Below, piece by piece: positions 6,751 to 16,255 of a stretch of DNA of 64,000 bases (position 1 is its first letter; each line of letters starts with the position of its first letter). Source of the DNA: an uncultured Acidobacteriota bacterium (lineage in GTDB: Bacteria > Acidobacteriota > UBA6911). A program made the position numbers and the translations under genes. The notes under the pieces were generated by a model, which ran no database searches, was not told the DNA's origin, and worked only from the letters and a program-made list of their open reading frames with translations. The DNA lies in contig CAWHCF010000049.1 of assembly GCA_963827655.1 (NCBI GenBank), positions 192,001 through 256,000 of the forward strand, given 5' to 3'.

Positions 6751-7392
6751 ATGGGATTGGAGAATCGCTTAAGCTGGGGGAATGTGCTTAGCCTTGAGCA
6801 CCCCGCGAAGGAGAGGCGCTTGACAGGTCCCGATGACCCGGGCGCGGCCTCGGATCTTGTCGAGGGCTGCAAGTTCGGGAAAATATCGGCTTACGAAGAA
6901 CTCTATCGAGTGCATGGTCCGCGCATGAAGAGCATTGCGTTGAATCTGCTGGGGAATGTTTCCGATGCAGAGGATGCGATCCAGGAGGCCTTTTTGAAGA
7001 TCTATCGCAGCGTGGGGAACTTCAAAGGGGAATCGACCTTTACCACCTGGATTTATCGCGTACTGGTGAACACGTGTTACGACTTGAGGCGAAAGCACAG
7101 ACGACGGCATGAGACGGCGGAGCTGGATGCTGATCCCGGCGGAATTCACCCGGCTCGTGAGGTTTCCGATCATCCTCTGAGAATGACTCTCCAAAAATGC
7201 CTGGCCCATTTACACCCGAGAAACCGAGCGGTTTTTCTTCTGTTCGAAGTCGAAGGGTTCAAGCACCGAGAAATCGCTGAAATTTTGAGCATTCCTGAAG
7301 GAACTTCGAAGAACCTCCTCTTCGAGGCCAAGCGAGAATTACAGCGGATGCTGTGGGAATCTTCGAACAGCGCGAGGACGCATGCGTCATGA
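6751..7392 (+). CDS. ECF RNA polymerase sigma factor
   Basis: Region 2 (DAEDAIQEAFL, FTTWIYRV) and region 4 (EIAEILSIPEGTSK). Exact start is uncertain. Confidence 0.92.
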   Translation: MGLENRLSWGNVLSLEHPAKERRLTGPDDPGAASDLVEGCKFGKISAYEELYRVHGPRMKSIALNLLGNVSDAEDAIQEAFLKIYRSVGNFKGESTFTTWIYRVLVNTCYDLRRKHRRRHETAELDADPGGIHPAREVSDHPLRMTLQKCLAHLHPRNRAVFLLFEVEGFKHREIAEILSIPEGTSKNLLFEAKRELQRMLWESSNSARTHAS

Positions 7393-8051
7393 AGATTGAA
7401 TGCAAAGACCTGCCTTACGTGCTTCGGCACGAAGAGCCCGAGTTGCTCAAGGCGCTCGAAGTCCACACCGAGACCTGCGCGCCATGCCGGGAGCAGTTCA
7501 AGATATGGAAGGAAATCTCACTCACCGCAGGCCAATTACGACAGGAGTGGGAGAGTCCTGGTTTGTGGCCCAGAATTCATCAGGCCCTGGCCGCCGAGTC
7601 TCAAGGCTCGAAGTCGACCAGATCCTGGAACAGCCTGATGTCGAGCTGGCAGGTGCCCGCCGCCGTCCTGGCGCTGATCCTGATCGCAATCTCGGGCGTT
7701 TGGGTTCTGCTGCGCAATTCTGAAACGGCGCCTGTCACCGACAATCGAGTCGATCAACGACAGCCGCTCCTTACCGAGCAGGCATTGCGCGACATCGAGA
7801 GCGCGGAAGCTGCTTATATCCAGTCGATTGAAAAGCTGTCTGCCGTTGTCGAGCCCAGAGTCCAGCAGGCGTCCTCGCCCCTCCTGATCAGCTATCGGGA
7901 AAAGCTGATGCTCATCGACGCCGCCATCAGTGAATGCCGCGCCAATATCGAGCGAAACCGTTTTAACGCGCATTTGCGTCAGGAGCTACTTTCGGTCTAC
8001 AGGGAAAAACAGGACACACTCCAGCAGGTTTTGAGGGAGGACAAGCAATGA
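7389..8051 (+). CDS. Zinc-finger (ZAS) single-TM anti-sigma factor
   Basis: HTETCAPC (HxxxCxxC), one TM helix, ATGA overlap with the sigma gene. Confidence 0.8.
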   Translation: MKIECKDLPYVLRHEEPELLKALEVHTETCAPCREQFKIWKEISLTAGQLRQEWESPGLWPRIHQALAAESQGSKSTRSWNSLMSSWQVPAAVLALILIAISGVWVLLRNSETAPVTDNRVDQRQPLLTEQALRDIESAEAAYIQSIEKLSAVVEPRVQQASSPLLISYREKLMLIDAAISECRANIERNRFNAHLRQELLSVYREKQDTLQQVLREDKQ

Positions 8052-9826
8052 GCTGCGATAGGCCCGGCAAGGCGCCGGCGACCATAATCCGGTTCTTTTC
8101 CTTTATAACGGTTTGGCTCTGTTGGAGCGGGCTTGTCCTGGCCGGCAGACCTGCACAGCGCGAGGAATTCACCAAGAGCTTTCAGAAGGCCGTGCAACTC
8201 TCGCCCGGGCTTGGAATCCGAATCGACCATCGGCACGGCGACATCGTCATACGCACTCATCGCCTGGAAGAGGCGCGCATCGATGCCATGATCCGCGTAT
8301 CGGCCGCGACGAAGGCCGATGCCACACGGTTCGGCGATCAAATCGAAATTCAGGTGGAGCAGACTGCCGCTGCGGTTTCAATCCGGACCAAATATCCGGA
8401 GTCGCGCGACGGGTCTCTCTTTCGCCGCCAGAACGTGTCTTTTTCCGTCGACTATCAGATTGTGATTCCCGAAAGCGCCCCTTTGAGCGTTCGAAATAGT
8501 TTCGGAAACGTCTCCGTGTCTCAGTTGAAAGCGAGCGCGGACATCACCAATGCTCATGGCCTCCTTGCCTTCAAGGACGGCGAGGGAACCCAGAGGCTGG
8601 AAAATTCATTCGGAGGAGTCGAAGTCACCGGGAATAGAGGCGATGTCACCATAACGAACGGCAACAATTTTGTCACCGTGGCAAATGTGGACGGCTCGGT
8701 CAATGTACGCAACCGATTCGGCAATGTGACTGCCACTAAAATAAGCAGGGCGGCCACAATTGTGAACAGCAACGGAAACGTCCTGCTGACGGGAGCCGCG
8801 GGTCCTTCCTCGATCGCGAACTCCTTCGGCGCGGCGAACGCGAGCGACATAACCGGCGACATCATCGTCAAGAATAACAATGGTGCCGTGGATGCGCGTA
8901 ACATACAGGGTGGGGCCGAGCTGAGTACGTCATTTGGCTCGATCAATTTTTTCGATATCGGCCGGAGACTGGCCTGTATCGCAACCAACACGCGTATAAC
9001 CGGGAGCAAGGTGGCTGGAGGCGCCGTGGTGCGCACGACCTTCGGCGCGGTCGAACTGCGCGACCTCGGGGGCGATACCGAGGTCCAGAATTCCAATGGC
9101 AAGATTTCGATTCAGGACGTGCGGGGCGAGGCGCTCCTTAAGACGAGTTTTGGAGCTATAGAAGCCATGGGCATTAGCGGGAACGCCACGGTCAGCAATT
9201 CCAACGCAGGCACCACGCTCAGTAATGTCCAGGGGGTGGTGGATATTCGCAGCTCCTTCGGGCCGATTGATGTAAGCGGAATCAGAAAAGGAGTCAAGAT
9301 AATCTCCGGAAACAGCAACGTCACGATCGCGGGTATTGCCGATGCTGCTTATGTGAAAACGACCTTTGGGCTGATAAAGGCAAGCCGCATCGGGGGTTCG
9401 CTCACCGCGGAGAATACGAACGGCGGAGTTACCGGCTCCTCCATCAAAGGCGCCGCGAACGTGCGGACTTCTTTTTCTTCAGTGATCCTGGATGGAGTGA
9501 GCGGCGGAGTCGACGTTTACAACCAGAATGGTTCTATCGAAGTATTGGGACTGGCCGCCAAGACGCCAGGCTCGCCGGGCTGCAATCCCATTATCCTTAG
9601 AACTTCCTTTTCTCCCATTCGGGTCTACCTTCCAGAAGACGCTGGATTCAATGTCACGGCTCGAACCTCTTTCGGCAAGATCAATAGCGAACTGCCGCTG
9701 ACCGTCAGCGGCAGCTTGAGCGCCGATGCCCTGTCGGGAAAAATCGGCACCGGCGAATGCGAATTGAATCTCACCAACAACAACGGCAATATCGAGATCC
9801 TTCGGGCATCCCTGAAGAAGAAGTAG
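8048..9826 (+). CDS. DUF4097-like secreted beta-strand repeat protein
   Basis: N-terminal hydrophobic segment, alternating 'SFG' and 'NxNG' beta repeats, ATGA overlap with the anti-sigma gene. Confidence 0.8.
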   Translation: MSCDRPGKAPATIIRFFSFITVWLCWSGLVLAGRPAQREEFTKSFQKAVQLSPGLGIRIDHRHGDIVIRTHRLEEARIDAMIRVSAATKADATRFGDQIEIQVEQTAAAVSIRTKYPESRDGSLFRRQNVSFSVDYQIVIPESAPLSVRNSFGNVSVSQLKASADITNAHGLLAFKDGEGTQRLENSFGGVEVTGNRGDVTITNGNNFVTVANVDGSVNVRNRFGNVTATKISRAATIVNSNGNVLLTGAAGPSSIANSFGAANASDITGDIIVKNNNGAVDARNIQGGAELSTSFGSINFFDIGRRLACIATNTRITGSKVAGGAVVRTTFGAVELRDLGGDTEVQNSNGKISIQDVRGEALLKTSFGAIEAMGISGNATVSNSNAGTTLSNVQGVVDIRSSFGPIDVSGIRKGVKIISGNSNVTIAGIADAAYVKTTFGLIKASRIGGSLTAENTNGGVTGSSIKGAANVRTSFSSVILDGVSGGVDVYNQNGSIEVLGLAAKTPGSPGCNPIILRTSFSPIRVYLPEDAGFNVTARTSFGKINSELPLTVSGSLSADALSGKIGTGECELNLTNNNGNIEILRASLKKK

Positions 9827-9849
9827 TCGTTGGTCTTCGCGCCCTGGCC

Positions 9850-9940
9850 GGCAAGTCGACGAAGCGCTTGTTATCCGGGTAGAGAACGTCGCGTAAGAAG
9901 AAGCGATCGATGACGAAGATGTTGCTGTCGAGTAGATCAA
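9850..9940 (-). pseudogene. Truncated PIN-domain toxin remnant
   Basis: An alternative frame reads LLDSNIFVIDRFFLRDVLYPDNKRFVD, like the first strand of a PIN domain, directly after the antitoxin. Similarity ends after about 30 aa. Confidence 0.55.
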
Positions 9941-10276
9941 GCGATCCCCTTTGATGGCCTTGTCCATTTCCCGCCAGGACTTGAAGCGAAGCCGACCGCG
10001 GACCTTGGCCGAAGCCTGCTCGAATAGCGACTCTAGCTCTCTGTCTTCTCGAGCCCTCAGCTCCGGGTACTTTCCGGCGATCTCCTCTCGCCAGGAATCG
10101 TAGAGAGTCGTCGGGTACTCGGTTGCTTTGGGTTTGAGGTCTTCAGGATCGAAGGGCTTGACTGTCGCAACGGGCTTCGCCCTTCGCGTCACGATAAGGG
10201 TAGTTCCTCGCTCTATTTCCCGCAGCAACCGGGTTGCCTGATTCTTCAGCTCCCGCACTGATACAAACCTTGCCAT
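9935..10276 (-). CDS. Phd/YefM-family antitoxin (3' end disturbed, no stop at the expected site)
   Basis: MARFVSVRELKNQATRLLREIERGTTLIVTRRAKPVA is a typical Phd N-terminus. The end coordinate is approximate. Confidence 0.75.
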
Positions 10277-10861
10277 CGCCGCCTTCTCCAGTTGGCCACA
10301 ATTGTAGCTACCTGAGCGAATTGAGTCAAGTCGCATCGTAGCGGTCGATCGCTCGAGATCTGCGATACGAGCACAGGCCGCACTCCACGGCCTAGACGAC
10401 GTCGTCCCGACGCGCGAGCCTTCGGATGAGCAAGATTCCGAGCCGGAGGGTCCGATTACCTCGGATCGAGATCGTAATCCACTGGTTGCAGATCTTGATG
10501 CTGGCAGCGCCGGCGATGCCGAGGTAGTCTAATCATTCGGTCCGGCGATCGCAAACGAGCCTGCCTGGTACTCGGCGAAGACGCTTCGAAGTCGAAGCGT
10601 TTCAGGCAGGGAAGGGAAGAGCCGGCGGTGGTCTTCGAATCAGGGTGTGGTGAAATCAATTGCGGGGACGCCGGGCCGGGGAGGCTTCCTGTGCTCACCT
10701 TCCGGCCCGGCTCGCCTCGTCGTCCTCCCTCACGCCGACTCCCCCTAACCGGCGAGAAGAATTCATCGACGAAGGCGTCTCAACCCAAAAACAACGTGCG
10801 AACGATGCGTTCTTCCTGGCATCGCGTCCGCATGTTATGCAGCGATAACTCGATGGTGCGG

Positions 10862-11059
10862 TCAGTGAACTTCCGGATAAAATTCTCCCTGTTCCAAAAC
10901 TTCCTTGAAATTGAGAATCCCCCGGCTGCAGGAGGGACATTCTGCAACATGAAGCTCAAGCAACTGCTGCATCTCGGGGCTCAACCCGTGCGCCCGTATT
11001 TCGTAGCAGAGGAGATCCAGCAGCGTTTGTGTACACCCAGACGGTTCATGGAGCCGCAT
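10862..11059 (-). CDS. Stand-alone zf-HC2/ZAS-like mini-protein
   Basis: 65 aa containing LELHVAECPSC (HxxxCxxC), GGAGG RBS, no TM helix. Confidence 0.65.
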   Translation of the reverse strand: MRLHEPSGCTQTLLDLLCYEIRAHGLSPEMQQLLELHVAECPSCSRGILNFKEVLEQGEFYPEVH

Positions 11060-11195
11060 CGTTTCCTCCGAGCTCCGATAAAAGCTGTCTCTGTTGCTAC
11101 CGCCGATCAGCCCATTTTCTATTGACGATTGATGATTGAAATAATCCGTCAGTTCGAATACACCGCCAGTCTAAGGAATCTTATGAGGGATGCGT

Positions 11196-11678
11196 CTAGC
11201 GGCCCTCTGTCGATGAATCACTCCTGAAGTTGATTTTTAGGTAGATTTCGCCGTCCGTAACGTAAAGTTGAGCCAAGCCGTTCAGATCCTCTGAACGCAT
11301 CCGGCTTCGTGCAATCTGGTAAAATCGTGTTTCCTCGACTGCCACCAGATCTTCCTCCAGTATTCCGTGTTGCTCTCTGTCCAGCGACTTGCTGGAGACA
11401 CGCGATGAGGGAATCACGATCGCTACCTGCTTGCCGGGAAACATCGCATCGGAAAGGCGGTCGATGAACTGGCTGCGCGTCAGCCCCATGCGTTCGATCG
11501 CGCTCTCTGAGATCTCAAACTGGCTGTGACTCGCCAGTTCCCGTGATTGCGCATTGCGAGCGAAAACCATGGTTACAGCATCCAGGTGGCGGCAATCCGC
11601 CTCCCTGTGCCATGGCAAAGCCTGGAACTAAAGTAAGGTCAATACCCCTGCAAACAGCGCAGCCCCGCGGTTCTTCAT
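11196..11678 (-). CDS. Putative secreted hypothetical protein (reading frame interrupted near the 5' end)
   Basis: GGGAGG RBS and ATG at 11678 (MKNRGAALFAGVLTL). In-frame TAG at 11628-11630. A shifted frame continues LVPGFAMA-QGGGLPPPGCC, completing a signal peptide. Confidence 0.55.
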
Positions 11679-11783
11679 TTCGCCTCCCTGCGGATGACCA
11701 CGGGTAGTTGACGTTCAAGGATCAGCAGAGGTAAACTGTGCTCCGCTCAAACACTCTGGTCCCTACCCGAGCTGATTTGATCC

Positions 11784-11829
11784 AGGGCGCCGGGATTGCG
11801 GCAACAACCCCGGCGCCCTTGTCTTTTTT
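11784..11829 (+). terminator. Intrinsic terminator-like hairpin on the + strand
   Basis: AGGGCGCCGGG...CCCGGCGCCCT 11-bp stem followed by TGTCTTTTTT. Confidence 0.55.
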
Positions 11830-12035
11830 AGTGCCTATACGATCTCTCAATAACAAGAACGCAAAACAGAGGAATTTGCCTACCGAAGAAAATCATTTTT
11901 TTGCATCTTAGGTTGCAGTACTGCGGAGAAGGCAGTCAACTACCGTCTCGGTTAAGCCCAGCGCCCTCGAGCGGATAGACCGAACCGGCGAATCTGGAGT
12001 ACCAGGCGACCGCAAGGAAGCGCAGAAATCCTTAG

Positions 12036-15000
12036 CTACTGCGGATTGCCGACGAGTACAAAGGGAGTCCAATGAAGCGGTGGTGGATCGGAGGTGGAGA
12101 GGTTGCCCTTCAGGATGTAGAGTTGGGCCATCTGCAGCGCGCGCGCCTTCGAGATCGCCCCACGAGCCATGAATTCATAAAAGCGCATGTTGAGCGCCCG
12201 CGTGGCGGCGTCATCCACGGGCAGCAGGCTCACCAGGACCGTGGGAGCGCCGGCGTTGAGAAAGGCTGGAAGCAAACCCCAGGGCGTTTCGCCGTCGGCT
12301 CGAGGACCAACCCCGGTGCTGCAGCCGGCCAGATTGACCAGAAAACTTCTTGCCAGTCTCAGGTCTTCGATCTGGGCCGGCCGAAGATAAGTTTCTCCCC
12401 GAGGAGATTTAAAGACCAGACTCGGTCTCCCATCCACCGGCAGGGCGTGACCCGAGAAATGAATGATCTCCGCGTCTGCTGCGGCTTGGGCCAGCCGATC
12501 GAGATCTCTTCCGTCGACAAGGTGCGCGCCCAGACCGTAAAGCCTGCTCAAGTGGGCGATTTCTTCCGACGCACCGGCCAGATTTGACGTGCCGTCGAGA
12601 AGGAGCACACTGGCCCGACGCCCTGAAGAAATTTCTCTTTTCTTGGAGAGGCAGTAATTCAGGATGCTGCGCGATGGAGCGTAGGCGAGGGCGTGCTTTT
12701 CCAGAAGGTAAGGACCCGCCGGACTCTTCAGTCCGGCAAATGGCAGGGAATGTAGCGGGCCATCGGGCAGTATGACCAGGTGCTCGACCGTCTGGGATTC
12801 CAGCTGGGCCGCGACCGGTGCAATCAGATAATCATAGAGCTTGCGGGCAAGCGCTTCGAAGCGCGCTTTTCCGTTCTCCTGAATGCTCTCAAGGTATTGT
12901 TGTACTTGCCGGTTCAGTTCGGCGGCGGAAAGAGCAACAGCGGCGGCTTTGACTCCGTGACGACCGGTTCCGAATACGAAAAGCTCCTCGCTAGTGGAAA
13001 AATACTCGATGATAAACGTGTTGCCTTCAGGCAGGGTGAATTCCGGGCCACCCTTCGAGACAGCCGGACGGCCCAGGGCAGCGCGCGAAAGGCCTTCTTG
13101 TGCGCCCAGCTGTTCCTTGAGCGTCATCGACTTGGCGCGATCTACCCAGGCCAGAGCGGAGCGCGGGTCCTTTTGAGAGCGAATCACCACCGAGACCAGC
13201 CCCTGGTAAGGGTCGAAGCGTCGGATCAAAAAGCTCTGTCGTAGATTCCGGGCGACGTGCTTGCGCATTTCCTCCAAAACCTGAATTGCGTGCTCGTAGT
13301 GGTACAAGGCATCAGCGGAATTGCCCTCGAGCCGGCGGAGGTCTCCGGTGAGGCTATGAGCCTGCCAATCGAGTTCGGGGAATTCTCCGGAAGAAGTAAT
13401 AGACCGGCAGACACGCAGCTCCTCTCCGGCTTCCTCGAATTGCTTCCGGCGCATGTGGACTTGAGCCAGCCCAATGCGATTGCGCGCTTCCAGTTCGCGC
13501 ATTCCGCCTCCGGAAGAAACCAGGCTCTCCCTGAAGCGGGTTTCGGCGTCCGCCAGGTCATTCATTCTCAGGGCAAGGTCCCCGAGTTGGCAAAGGCGAT
13601 TGAGCCAGCGGGCTCGCAGGGCAGGCGCGGCCTGCATCGTACCCTCTTTTATGAAGCTTTCCTGCCTGGTCGTCGATTCCTGATAGAACGCACGTGCCTC
13701 CGGAAGCCGATCCTTTCGTTCCATGATCGCGCCAATGCTCTCGAGAGATTCGACCACAGTCTCTTCGTCCATCAGGCGATAACCTGCGGCCAATGCCTGG
13801 GTGAATTCGTCCAGGCTCTGGTCGAGCTTGTTCAAGTCCATATAGGCGGTTCCAAGGCCGTTGGAAGCGTACGCCCCCCAGGACTGCAATCCGTACATTG
13901 TGGACAGCTCTTTCATTCTAACCAGGCAAGGTATTGCCTTCTCGAAATCACGCTTTTCGAGGTGAGCGGAAGCCACGGCGCCTAGCGCCTTGGCGATCAG
14001 ATCCGGTGAGCCGGAGAGCTCCGCCGCTCGGAGCATTTTTTGGTATTCTGCCAGCGCGCTCGGGAAATCGGCCTTGCTGTAGTACCGCCAATTGCCGCGA
14101 AGGTGGTGCAGGTCGACGAGTTGCCAGTGATCCCGAAGGCTACCGAATCTTTCCTCCAGGAATTGGCTGTCTAGGAGGGCTGAGTGCAGGTCTTTCGACT
14201 GAATGTCTTCATGACGATGGGTATCGATTAGTTTCTGTAGTCTCGCATCCAGAGCTTTCTTTGCGCGCCGTCGGGGAGGGGAAAGGCCGGCGTAGAAGTC
14301 GAGCAGGCGCTGGTAAGTGCGATCACCGGTTACAGAACCGTACTCAGCCGTCAGGATGCCGGAAGCCCACCCCAAGTCTGGGGAACCGCGCTTTCCCTCA
14401 GGCGCCGTACCTTCGATCTGGAGGCTTCGCTTGAGCGAGTTCCGGATGGCATTCGGAATCTGGTAGGGAACCAGCCGAACCAGCCGCTCCAAGCCGGCGG
14501 CATCAAGGGTCATCGCGGCCCGGTTCACCTCTTTCTGGACGGCATCGGCTCGCGTCATCCGTATTCTCGCCTGGATCGCCCGGAGTTTTTCGGCCCATAT
14601 TGAAGTTGAGTCCCTGGAAAGATAGAGGTCAATCTCCGCCAAGGCTTCCTTGTGCCGCCCGTTGTCGTACAACGCGCGGGCCCGATCGAACCGGGCCTCG
14701 TCAGAACCTGGATTTTCCCGGAGCACCGCTTCGAAATCCTTGAGCGCTCGATCTATCTTGCTGGTACGCTCTACGGGGTCGCGAGATGCGAGCCCCTCCT
14801 CATAGAGAGCCACGCCTCGGCCGATCAGAGCCTGTTGATGGGTGCCTGTCTCAGCCAGAATCCGATCAAACTCCGCGCTTGCCTTCGAGAACTCTGATTT
14901 CGCGAGGTACACCGACCCAAGGCCTAACCGTGGTTCCAGCATGTTCTGCTGAAGGGCGAGGGCCTGGTAGAAGAGCTTTTCGGCTGTTTCCAGCGAGTCC

Positions 15001-15524
15001 TCGCCCGGCGAGCCGCGCCGGTTGGCCGAGGGCTGAAAGGGGAGGTTTAATCGCAAACCACTGGGACTCTGAGGCGCGTACGCTTCTTCCAGAGCGGCTC
15101 GGGCCTGCGCGCTGAAGGCATCAGCCTTGCTCCTGTTCCAGAAATAGACGGAGGCCAGCGAACCCGAGACTACAGCTGCTACGACGGCAGCCGCTACCGC
15201 TCCCCATCGGTACCATGCGCCGGAGAAAACGTAACGGCCCTTCCGGTTTCGTTCCTTCCAGGAGATCTGCCCGATTCTCGCGAGTGTTTCGTCGATTTCT
15301 TTTTTCGAAACTTCGCCGGTCGATTCGGCGCTTTCAGAGGGCTCGGGGTAAATAATCTTGATCAGCTCTCCGAGCTCAGAGGAGCACCGCGGACAGACGG
15401 ACAGGTGTGATTCGAGTTCGGCGGGAACTCTCGTTCCCGGATTATGCGTGACGTAGCTGTAAAAATCTTCCTCGTTCAAACAATGATCTTTTGTGACATG
15501 CGGGGCATTGATCTGGTTTTTCAT
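12036..15524 (-). CDS. Anti-sigma zinc finger - TM - TPR - CHAT (caspase-like) domain protein
   Basis: HLSVCPRC near the N-terminus, one TM helix, TPR-like helices, and CHAT motifs LYDYLIAP, PDGPLHSLPFAGL, IIHFSGH, LAGCSTG, FLNAGA and WTPFVLVG. Confidence 0.9.
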   Translation of the reverse strand: MKNQINAPHVTKDHCLNEEDFYSYVTHNPGTRVPAELESHLSVCPRCSSELGELIKIIYPEPSESAESTGEVSKKEIDETLARIGQISWKERNRKGRYVFSGAWYRWGAVAAAVVAAVVSGSLASVYFWNRSKADAFSAQARAALEEAYAPQSPSGLRLNLPFQPSANRRGSPGEDSLETAEKLFYQALALQQNMLEPRLGLGSVYLAKSEFSKASAEFDRILAETGTHQQALIGRGVALYEEGLASRDPVERTSKIDRALKDFEAVLRENPGSDEARFDRARALYDNGRHKEALAEIDLYLSRDSTSIWAEKLRAIQARIRMTRADAVQKEVNRAAMTLDAAGLERLVRLVPYQIPNAIRNSLKRSLQIEGTAPEGKRGSPDLGWASGILTAEYGSVTGDRTYQRLLDFYAGLSPPRRRAKKALDARLQKLIDTHRHEDIQSKDLHSALLDSQFLEERFGSLRDHWQLVDLHHLRGNWRYYSKADFPSALAEYQKMLRAAELSGSPDLIAKALGAVASAHLEKRDFEKAIPCLVRMKELSTMYGLQSWGAYASNGLGTAYMDLNKLDQSLDEFTQALAAGYRLMDEETVVESLESIGAIMERKDRLPEARAFYQESTTRQESFIKEGTMQAAPALRARWLNRLCQLGDLALRMNDLADAETRFRESLVSSGGGMRELEARNRIGLAQVHMRRKQFEEAGEELRVCRSITSSGEFPELDWQAHSLTGDLRRLEGNSADALYHYEHAIQVLEEMRKHVARNLRQSFLIRRFDPYQGLVSVVIRSQKDPRSALAWVDRAKSMTLKEQLGAQEGLSRAALGRPAVSKGGPEFTLPEGNTFIIEYFSTSEELFVFGTGRHGVKAAAVALSAAELNRQVQQYLESIQENGKARFEALARKLYDYLIAPVAAQLESQTVEHLVILPDGPLHSLPFAGLKSPAGPYLLEKHALAYAPSRSILNYCLSKKREISSGRRASVLLLDGTSNLAGASEEIAHLSRLYGLGAHLVDGRDLDRLAQAAADAEIIHFSGHALPVDGRPSLVFKSPRGETYLRPAQIEDLRLARSFLVNLAGCSTGVGPRADGETPWGLLPAFLNAGAPTVLVSLLPVDDAATRALNMRFYEFMARGAISKARALQMAQLYILKGNLSTSDPPPLHWTPFVLVGNPQ

Positions 15525-16255
15525 TGGATCGTAGCCTCCGAAGGCCCGGTTCCCGCAACATTCCTCAGACGATCCTTCAGTCGATTGAGGACTTTTTCAA
15601 CGCCCGGCTTGGATAGTTCGACCCCTTTGCACTGAGCGATCTGCGTGGTGGACAGGCCATAGGTAAAGTAAAGCTGGAAGATCAACTGGTCGCGAGCCGA
15701 CGATTCTCCGGAAGAATCACGGATCATCCTCATGCTTAGATCGGCAACTTCGCGAGCCAGGAGCTCGCGCTCCATCGACGCGTGTTTCGCGAAGCTGTCT
15801 GATACGTCGGTTCTCGACTCTGACAGGGAGGCCAGGGAAATCTGGGTATGGCTGATCGGGCGCTTGAGGGCTCTCTGGCGGCGCAAGAAATCTGAGACTA
15901 CTGATCGCGTGATGACCGCAAGGTAGGCCATGAACTCCTCTTCGGTGATGCCCGAAAACCGCCTCATGACGGAGCAGCCGTTTTGTACCAGGCGAACGAT
16001 CGTGTTCTGGAAAAGGTCGCTTTCCTGAAAGCCTCCGGACAGGAGAGGCGCGTCCGAAGGGCCGAAGGAGCCACCGCGGTTTTGCCGTAGCGTTCCTCGT
16101 ATGAAAGCCTTGATCTTAGGTGTAATACGGCGCAGCAGCTCGGACCAGAGAGCGGAATTTCCGGTGTCTTGTGCGCATAAAGACACCAGCTCGACAGTCT
16201 CGATGGCTATCGGGTCGTTACCGGGCACACGTTCTGCGACGACTTTGGCGGACAT
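15521..16255 (-). CDS. ECF-like sigma-70 factor
   Basis: Region 2 (SDLFQNTIVRL, FMAYLAVITRSVVSDFLRR) and region 4 (RDQLIFQLYFTYGLSTTQIA). ATGA overlap with the CHAT gene. Confidence 0.85.
   Translation of the reverse strand: MSAKVVAERVPGNDPIAIETVELVSLCAQDTGNSALWSELLRRITPKIKAFIRGTLRQNRGGSFGPSDAPLLSGGFQESDLFQNTIVRLVQNGCSVMRRFSGITEEEFMAYLAVITRSVVSDFLRRQRALKRPISHTQISLASLSESRTDVSDSFAKHASMERELLAREVADLSMRMIRDSSGESSARDQLIFQLYFTYGLSTTQIAQCKGVELSKPGVEKVLNRLKDRLRNVAGTGPSEATIQ

Follow-up and report, generated by a model that had tools for sequence, protein, structure and literature searches.

The DNA analysed here, referred to below as the window, is a stretch of 64,000 nucleotides from an uncultured Acidobacteriota bacterium (assembly GCA_963827655.1, contig CAWHCF010000049.1, positions 192,001 to 256,000; coordinates below are those of the window). 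It carries a cassette of four genes for a sigma factor of the extracytoplasmic function (ECF) type, a 1162-residue anti-sigma protein with tetratricopeptide repeats (TPR) and a CHAT protease domain, a secreted protein with a PPxCC motif, and a 65-residue anti-sigma-like mini-protein. We consider the cassette to be, probably, a transmembrane signalling switch of the DdvA type with two feedback parts. The core pair is already a known kind, since DdvA and DdvS of Myxococcus xanthus have been characterized by genetics, cryo-electron microscopy and nuclear magnetic resonance (PMC11506125, PMC6061681; PDB 8ROT, 8RW5, 8RLZ). What is new here is the secreted PPxCC partner, the soluble mini anti-sigma and a promoter motif.

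An earlier note, made from the sequence alone, had described four co-oriented genes and read them as a self-contained, CRISPR-free switch in which anti-sigma, sensor and protease are fused beside an ECF sigma. Its observation is confirmed and its interpretation partly supported. An open reading frame (ORF) check recovered all four frames in place on the minus strand, and the fusion stands on the domain matches and gene adjacency given below. The note also knew of no experimental characterization of the arrangement, but the DdvA/DdvS work supplies one (PMC11506125, PMC6061681), and CHAT self-cleavage followed by RseP had already been proposed there.

The sigma factor and its DdvA-like partner

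The first gene (16255-15521, minus strand) encodes a divergent ECF-type sigma factor of 244 residues. It matches TIGR02937, a sigma70-ECF model, at 52.4 bits (cut-off 42.9), while the Pfam search gave a weak match to Sigma70_r2 (E = 0.011) and did not find Sigma70_r4. Its score against NF041236 (CASP-sigma) is 25.5 bits where the cut-off is 100, so it falls outside that family. A single-sequence search for related loci with the sigma as query returned no match, and the loci were gathered through an alignment of the large protein instead. Sigma relatives that are 43-57% identical adjoin the large gene in these loci, lying directly upstream of it in 33 of the 34 that hold its 5' end. This adjacency, whose conservation the earlier note had set as a check, exceeds chance. 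In the window the two genes overlap by ATGA at 15524-15521, as that note had observed.

The large gene (15524-12036, minus strand) begins with a zinc-binding anti-sigma domain (15482-15351), predicted to be cytoplasmic and folded as three helices in the structural model. An HxxxCxxC motif at residues 40-47 together with C15 makes up a CHCC site; across 46 aligned homologues H40, C44 and C47 are kept in all and C15 in forty-five (45 CHCC, one HHCC). A single transmembrane helix follows at about residues 107-128 (15206-15141), seen as one strong hydrophobic peak (hydropathy 2.03) and predicted to run N-in/C-out, with more positive charge before the helix than after it in 41/46 homologues. The CHAT domain most likely faces the periplasm. 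Between the two lies a juxtamembrane linker with the conserved motif SPxxLRLxLPF (residues 151-163; 15074-15036), in which S153, L157, R158, P162 and F163 are invariant in the 46 homologues. TPR repeats were also detected, and the protein ends in the CHAT domain (residues 891-1160; 13166-12039; PF12770, E = 2.3e-44). The catalytic residues that the earlier note had picked out, H1022 in HFSGH (12461-12459) and C1068 in LAGC (12323-12321), are both present in 46/46 homologues, and Pfam, hydropathy and the CHCC site all agree with its domain order. A second CHAT cysteine, C958 (12651-12653), is conserved in 44/46.

The AlphaFold monomer model of the large protein (mean predicted local distance difference test, pLDDT, 84.9) has DdvA as its first and second Foldseek matches (8rw5/8rot; E = 6e-18, 16-17% identity). 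In a comparison with VIA, residues 134-1159 align with DdvA 95-991 (Z 22.6, root-mean-square deviation (rmsd) 11.7, 846 residues aligned), the longest alignment obtained; by Z, VIA ranks craspase and separase above DdvA (29.4), the craspase alignment covering 500 residues at rmsd 8.5. The TPR region 419-750 aligns with the peptide-binding protein LGN (Z ~25, rmsd 3) and with Rap proteins. At the sequence level the resemblance is slight: phmmer against the PDB gave only weak TPR matches and nothing to DdvA at E <= 1, and a profile search matched DdvA in two stretches only.

DdvA consists of a CHCC zinc anti-sigma domain, one transmembrane helix and a periplasmic scaffold-TPR-CHAT dimer, and its CHAT domain is without the three-helix motif (PMC11506125). 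The window pair shares the order of an ECF sigma gene followed by a CHCC anti-sigma with one transmembrane helix, a linker and a TPR scaffold, and likewise the long midrib-like helix, the TPR superhelix and a CHAT domain with a His-Cys dyad. The features of a DdvA-like pair are present, namely a CHCC/HHCC domain, a predicted single N-in/C-out helix, a scaffold-TPR-CHAT dyad and an ECF sigma upstream. The window protein differs from DdvA in its low identity, its length (1162 against 991 residues) and its acidobacterial host. It falls short of narrow orthology, which in the rows of Table S7 of PMC11506125 that were covered corresponds to roughly >=32% identity over ~90% of the length. DdvA-like proteins were described from Myxococcota and one Comamonas, nearly confined to myxobacteria, and Acidobacteria are absent from the available supplements of that survey, including Table S7 (PMC11506125). 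Over its entire periplasmic portion the protein has DdvA's fold and arrangement of domains; the CHCC site, dyad and topology are conserved; the sigma is adjacent; and the genome contains an rseP gene. We conclude that the large protein probably works like DdvA yet is no close orthologue.

Two other systems are less close. The earlier note had drawn its analogy with the type III-E craspase, in which Csx29 cleaves Csx30. The TPR-CHAT fold and the tie between a protease and the freeing of an ECF-like sigma bear the analogy out, but it is a weaker comparison than DdvA, for Csx29 acts in the cytoplasm under the control of Cas7-11 and target RNA, whereas the protease of the window is anchored in the membrane, probably on the periplasmic side, and forms one polypeptide with the anti-sigma. 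Nor is there a craspase locus; no cas genes lie nearby, and sixteen window ORFs gave no PADLOC match to Cas7-11, Csx30, Csx31 or array components. ECF54, found only in Actinobacteria, also has an ECF sigma beside a TPR-CHAT gene with proteolytic control proposed, and the available part of the PMC7826278 supplement mentions CHAT three times, in passages that, as far as shown, concern this group; other groups may also bear on the window sigma. It is described with no anti-sigma, with subtilase and carboxypeptidase-like neighbours, and with a GTATCAG/CTCC promoter (PMC7826278 supplement, PMC8999054). The window sigma is not a member, as its anti-sigma is fused to CHAT and its relatives are Acidobacteriota.

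A protein search with the large protein found 47 close relatives (37-95% identity) and then a sharp drop. Of 159 fetched loci, fifty-nine form the core family (best segment >=38%), several of them near-duplicates; left out were L125 (a 145-residue piece at 43%) and ninety-nine more distant CHAT loci, which yielded one weak sigma match and no match for either small gene. All core-family records with names are Acidobacteriota. Among 51 genomes of the window's Acidobacteriota family, the large gene occurs in twenty-eight, the mini-protein in twenty-nine and the sigma in twenty-five; of the genomes with the large gene, 27/28 also have the mini-protein, and conversely 27/29 genomes with the mini-protein and 24/25 with the sigma have the large gene. 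Across the phylum, a sample of 301 genomes yielded the mini-protein in two, both from the window's family. A literature search that reached few subscription papers returned no description of the acidobacterial form. The family carries the DdvA architecture into Acidobacteriota and, unlike DdvA, adds to it a constant small exported partner, an equally constant soluble protein that resembles an anti-sigma, and a sharply defined promoter motif.

In L028 (4889-8103), and also in L022 and L101, there is a second copy of the sigma followed by an 872-residue protein that has the same N-terminal zinc domain. Its middle looks ATPase-like, and a C-terminal HATPase_c_2 match (E = 1.8e-5, below cut-off) takes the place of TPR-CHAT. 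This is the same sigma/zinc pair with another sensor.

The promoter motif and the two small genes

The four genes, which the earlier note had treated as one cassette, are real, but they are predicted to form two transcription units. A promoter motif, GTAGGC-N16-CGTTCTTG (11883-11854, minus strand), lies inside the 357-nucleotide gap before the secreted gene. The same motif, GTAGGC-N16-CGTTCTTG, stands about 200 nucleotides before the start in 49 aligned upstream regions of that gene. With a matrix built from 46 sites, the window excluded, the window site scores 33.5 bits and the next best site in the 8.2-Mb genome 18.0 bits; ten column-shuffled matrices gave 0-4 sites at >=20 bits. Genome scans with a variable spacer, whose best sites reached 21-24.5 bits without a shuffled control, were not counted. 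Scans for sigma-70 promoters and terminators were uninformative as to the cassette.

The motif follows the small genes in loci where these are turned round or separated from the rest, scoring 32.6-35.6 bits in L021, L022, L028 and L101 and 18.0-23.3 bits in L018, L023, L024, L083 and L091, and none of these rearranged loci was used in training the matrix. The exact pattern GTAGGC-N16-CGTT occurs in 17/28 cassette genomes (61 sites, those at the cassette being partly in-sample) and in 1/23 others (one site), and a reversed-pattern control gave eleven sites in nine genomes. Because the motif moves with the small genes and tracks the cassette across genomes, we take it to be the putative promoter recognized by the cassette sigma. 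The DdvS promoter is GTAA-n16-CGT, ddvS is autoregulated, and its regulon is mostly the neighbouring island (PMC6061681). The CGT of the -10 element is shared; the -35 side differs, and the motif is absent directly upstream of the sigma gene in the window, so the autoregulated DdvS-type promoter was not recovered. In L006, L016 and L023 a motif site one gene upstream could reach the sigma.

The transcript predicted from this promoter would start with a structured leader. A hairpin at 11818-11785 pairs in 75.8% of cells against 64.7% in shuffled alignments (0/500 shuffles as high; slid controls 33-39%), the tested structure having been derived from the window sequence. Single leaders fold better than their shuffles (mean z -2.2; 24/49 under -2), and a second stem is weak (78/2000 shuffles as high). 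RNAalifold found no consensus structure in a MAFFT alignment of 35 leaders, and Rfam gave no family at threshold, with one chance match. Overall the leader spans about 170 nucleotides (11848-11676); its hairpin covaries, and a long but weaker stem closes shortly ahead of the ribosome site. It is a possible cis-regulatory RNA, and we do not claim a riboswitch. Metatranscriptome contigs from two studies cover the cassette and one begins at 11818, the hairpin base; they are uninformative on level, strand or start and were not counted.

The mini-protein gene (11059-10862, minus strand) encodes a soluble CHCC protein that matches zf-HC2 at cut-off, in line with the free HxxxCxxC protein reported earlier. 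C9, H37, C41 and C44 are invariant in 37 sequences, and the best solved match is RsiW (E = 0.0066). At E <= 1e-10 there are 62 representative homologues, nearly all under 125 residues. The gene is present in 45/59 core loci, the other fourteen being contig fragments; the mini-protein of L027 is divergent and stands without a promoter site.

The secreted gene (11678-11196, minus strand) encodes a Sec-type signal peptide, a mature N-terminus of the form Q-x(2-9)-PPxCC and a small C-terminal domain. It is present in 55/59 core loci, the remaining four being truncated by contig ends, and the cysteine pair is found in 49/55 proteins. The C-terminal domain occurs in 27 distinct sequences, and about twenty others have unrelated tails. 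Common to all forms are only the signal peptide and the N-terminal Q-x-PPxCC peptide, which in some loci is repeated in tandem: three copies in L028 and L101 (L101:3404-3832), several in L080 (2986-3135) and two in L092 (9419-9685). Precursors of peptide signals are often tandemly repeated. Because the N-terminal peptide alone is shared by every form and is tandem in some loci, we read it as a candidate peptide signal. The protein has no Pfam family, no Atlas match and no Foldseek match at E <= 0.001, and with a best VIA Z of 4.2 the fold searches establish neither a new fold nor its absence.

Complex prediction gives weak support to binding between peptide and receptor. For L095, receptor residues 185-1149 with mature peptide residues 1-32 scored 0.32, against 0.02 for the best of three controls; the three runs gave 0.32, 0.02 and 0.36, with contact agreement of at least 42% and partner pLDDT of at least 36. 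The mark for this score was reached by 116/157 solved pairs and 2/215 mismatched pairs, and passes at <=0.60 comprise eighteen of the 157 solved pairs and both passing mismatches, so the modelled complex raises the odds of binding only slightly.

The cysteines invite another explanation, in which the secreted protein's vicinal cysteines, together with the zinc sites, would sense oxidation or metal load in the periplasm, and the mini-protein would buffer zinc or redox state and not be an anti-sigma. The frequency of the CC pair, the conservation of C958 and three conserved sigma cysteines (C27, C94, C209) fit such a sensor, and zinc anti-sigma domains often sense oxidants (PMC11506125). We nonetheless regard it as quite improbable: the predicted targets examined include no redox or metal-handling family, such a role would leave a TPR-CHAT sensor of 1000 residues redundant, and the prolines before the CC show the conservation expected of a binding epitope. 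Absence of the CC pair did not go together with absence of C958.

In the window itself the secreted gene is broken. The earlier note had listed it as a cryptic secreted gene; the gene and its signal peptide are there, but the frame is not intact. It opens at 11678 with the signal peptide and meets a TAG at codon 17; the motif is read in a second frame (11631-11569), after which the first takes over again at 11567, which amounts to two compensating frameshifts near 11631 and 11568. Among 15 homologues, P0272 (159 residues, 93% identical, nine member sequences) and others are intact at 159-161 residues. Contigs from three runs lack one base at 11567, those of a fourth carry compensating changes at both places, and there are at least seven further indels. 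The breaks are either an assembly error or real, and the gene may be dead in this genome. The whole cassette might then be a decaying copy, its secreted gene a pseudogene and its regulon shrunk to nothing useful. Besides the frameshifts, the single strong promoter site in 8.2 Mb, against up to 18 strict sites in one relative's genome, would fit such decay. Near-identical strains, however, hold an intact secreted gene, the other three genes, the promoter and the leader are intact here, and both indels fall at short base runs where assembly may err, though the neighbouring genes align with relatives without frameshifts. We consider decay an improbable account, if slightly less so than the redox one.

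A proposed switch with feedback

By analogy with DdvA, whose zinc domain was shown to hold the sigma (PMC11506125), the cytoplasmic zinc domain would at rest hold the sigma at the membrane. A periplasmic signal, probably a protein or peptide in the TPR superhelix, would activate the CHAT domain, which would take off the bulky periplasmic portion, with the juxtamembrane linker as the most likely place of the cut. RseP would then cut the transmembrane helix and free the sigma, as it cuts DdvA once the periplasmic part is gone (PMC11506125). The freed sigma would transcribe from GTAGGC-N16-CGTT promoters, with the secreted PPxCC protein and the mini anti-sigma as fixed targets; variable targets in relatives would include PilZ, PAS-kinase and small helix-turn-helix (HTH) regulators as well as exported proteins, with cas operons added in certain genomes. 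Reset of the switch would most likely come from the mini-protein, by recapture of the sigma. Proteolytic release of the sigma is thus what we infer for the cassette. It would not be self-contained, as the earlier note had it: the protease lies most likely outside the membrane, so the zinc domain could not be cut directly and a host site-2 protease would be needed.

The linker is a candidate site-1 cleavage or auto-inhibitory segment, a role suggested by the DdvA linker, which faces the active site of the partner subunit (PMC11506125). The CHAT domain might instead cut another periplasmic protein, such as the secreted PPxCC protein, with sigma release left to a separate site-1 protease or to a conformational change. 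An invariant dyad bespeaks selection for catalysis and is silent on the substrate; the secreted protein is located in the same compartment and, in loci not cut by contig ends, is present wherever the protease is; and no DdvA self-cleavage, constitutive or phage-induced, was observed (PMC11506125). On the other side stand the strong conservation of residues 151-163 and the position of the DdvA linker, and we think a different substrate rather unlikely. The earlier note offered catalytic mutants as a test, which would be misleading unless the trigger is present: DdvA carrying H862A or C907A kept its resting repression unchanged (PMC11506125).

As to what the secreted protein does, it may be the trigger or the brake of such switches, and its peptide may activate, inhibit or be a substrate. 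The alignment of the TPR region with LGN and Rap, the peptide repeats and the L095 complex prediction lead us to suggest, tentatively and at somewhat below even confidence, that the PPxCC peptide feeds back on the periplasmic receptor as ligand or inhibitor. Rap/Phr and other RRNPP receptors are cytoplasmic TPR proteins whose peptides are re-imported. The cassette resembles Rap/Phr in pairing a right-handed TPR superhelix with an adjacent gene whose small exported product bears a short conserved peptide, repeated in some cases; unlike Rap, the receptor here would be periplasmic and proteolytic, and we intend an analogy only. A more speculative version, which we doubt, is that the sigma's own product, the PPxCC peptide, binds TPR-CHAT and triggers or blocks self-cleavage, closing a loop that would serve as an alarm between cells or as an autoinducer and, in certain lineages, turn on CRISPR-Cas operons in trans. 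If true, a DdvA-type anti-sigma would have its first named ligand, and the proposed autoproteolytic step could be probed by that route; the activating signal of DdvA is still to be found, and validation of self-cleavage is said to depend on it (PMC11506125). Because the circuit is compact, with four genes, a reporter at hand and a synthesizable candidate ligand or inhibitor, the trigger question is testable in a laboratory host.

Several points weigh against the proposed switch. The topology is based on hydropathy, charge bias and likeness to DdvA, a shared TPR fold is no proof of function, and for DdvA itself CHAT self-cleavage is a proposal (PMC11506125). L025 has the large gene without an adjacent sigma. 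Eleven of the 28 cassette genomes lack an exact match to the strict pattern, and the link between promoter and sigma is a co-occurrence among non-independent kin, with a matrix partly trained on loci of the same genomes. The CC pair is missing from 6/55 secreted proteins, yet their receptors keep the dyad where the DNA reaches, and one of the three L095 complex runs fell to 0.02.

Predicted targets, defence genes and surroundings

In the window's genome the predicted output comprises only the secreted and mini genes. Distal sites in relatives were collected from 33 regions (leaving out G009:C19, G010:C441, G019:C35, G334:C242 and G345:C1), and thirty-one of these score >=26 bits. The first genes after them encode excisionase-like HTH proteins (four by family match, two by look), PAS sensors (three), a PilZ-CBS protein, a sigma-54 activator, some six proteins that look exported and two Cas3 proteins. 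Near the cassette, PilZ and PAS-kinase genes recur. The small excisionase-like HTH protein follows the motif away from the cassette in five genomes (L215, L219, L227, L228, L229, L241) and is a likely recurrent member of the regulon.

Both cas3 sites are strong (31.0 and 31.7 bits) and stand directly before cas operons, a complete one of type I-C (G004:C184, L243:221-8103) and one of type I-G (G332:C330, L244:2-7394), in genomes of different genera. In G345 a site with a 17-nucleotide spacer (L265:2851; 26.4 bits) lies ~420 nucleotides before cas3. The family has fourteen matches to the cas3 model, of which three look like Lhr helicases; ten of the other eleven are in cassette genomes. These ten loci comprise two with the canonical site, the 17-nucleotide-spacer case and seven with no site at >=15 bits within 12-19.5 kb. 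The two cas operons point to TPR-CHAT anti-sigmas having become linked with defence on more than one occasion. As for the term CRISPR-free, it applies to the locus alone. No cas1, cas3 or CRISPR array was found in this genome (90% complete), but in the two relatives the predicted regulon takes in cas operons located elsewhere in the genome.

These sites bear on the idea that the switch is a danger alarm sensing phage attack or neighbour lysis, with the secreted PPxCC peptide spreading the alarm by positive feedback and inducing defence genes where present. The sites before cas3 in G004, G332 and G345 favour it, as does the control of CRISPR/CBASS by DdvS (PMC6061681, PMC11506125). Weighing the other way are the seven cas3 loci without a site in the fetched DNA, the predominance of regulators and unknown exported proteins among the targets, and the lack of any cas or CBASS core gene among 232 neighbouring ORFs (ORFs were picked by length, and genes under longer antisense frames may escape) or of cas1, cas3 or an array in this genome. 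We judge a general alarm function unlikely on balance, though well short of implausible. Many DdvA-like pairs in Table S7 likewise lack flanking CRISPR/CBASS (PMC11506125).

A defence island at the locus was considered and rejected, as the 232 ORFs gave only scattered matches and generic domains. Here the locus differs from that of DdvA; its conserved secreted protein and soluble mini anti-sigma are a further difference, neither being described in the available parts of the DdvA papers. The scattered matches are to Wadjet (L013), type I restriction-modification (L016), DpdJ-like (L019), DrmD-like (L023) and DEDDh (L008) proteins. Wadjet jetBCD (L013:2352-7870) and the type I restriction-modification genes (L016:18809-23406) each adjoin the cassette in a single locus, and a small HNH gene lies near it in four (L007, L023, L024, L083).

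Elsewhere in the window, positions 6751-9826 hold another ECF sigma gene, a gene for a membrane protein resembling an anti-sigma, and one for an exported repeat protein of 592 residues, a neighbourhood also seen in L020, L095 and L099. A frame at 9479-10336 resembles a Phd/YefM antitoxin, with a score below cut-off; no partner toxin was seen, and the 3' part of the frame overlaps a convergent gene. Contigs of all four runs diverge from the window sequence at 10662, which marks the stretch around 9479-10336 as strain-specific. The same genome (G000) carries five more CHAT genes, on contigs C10, C14, C25, C26 and C45.

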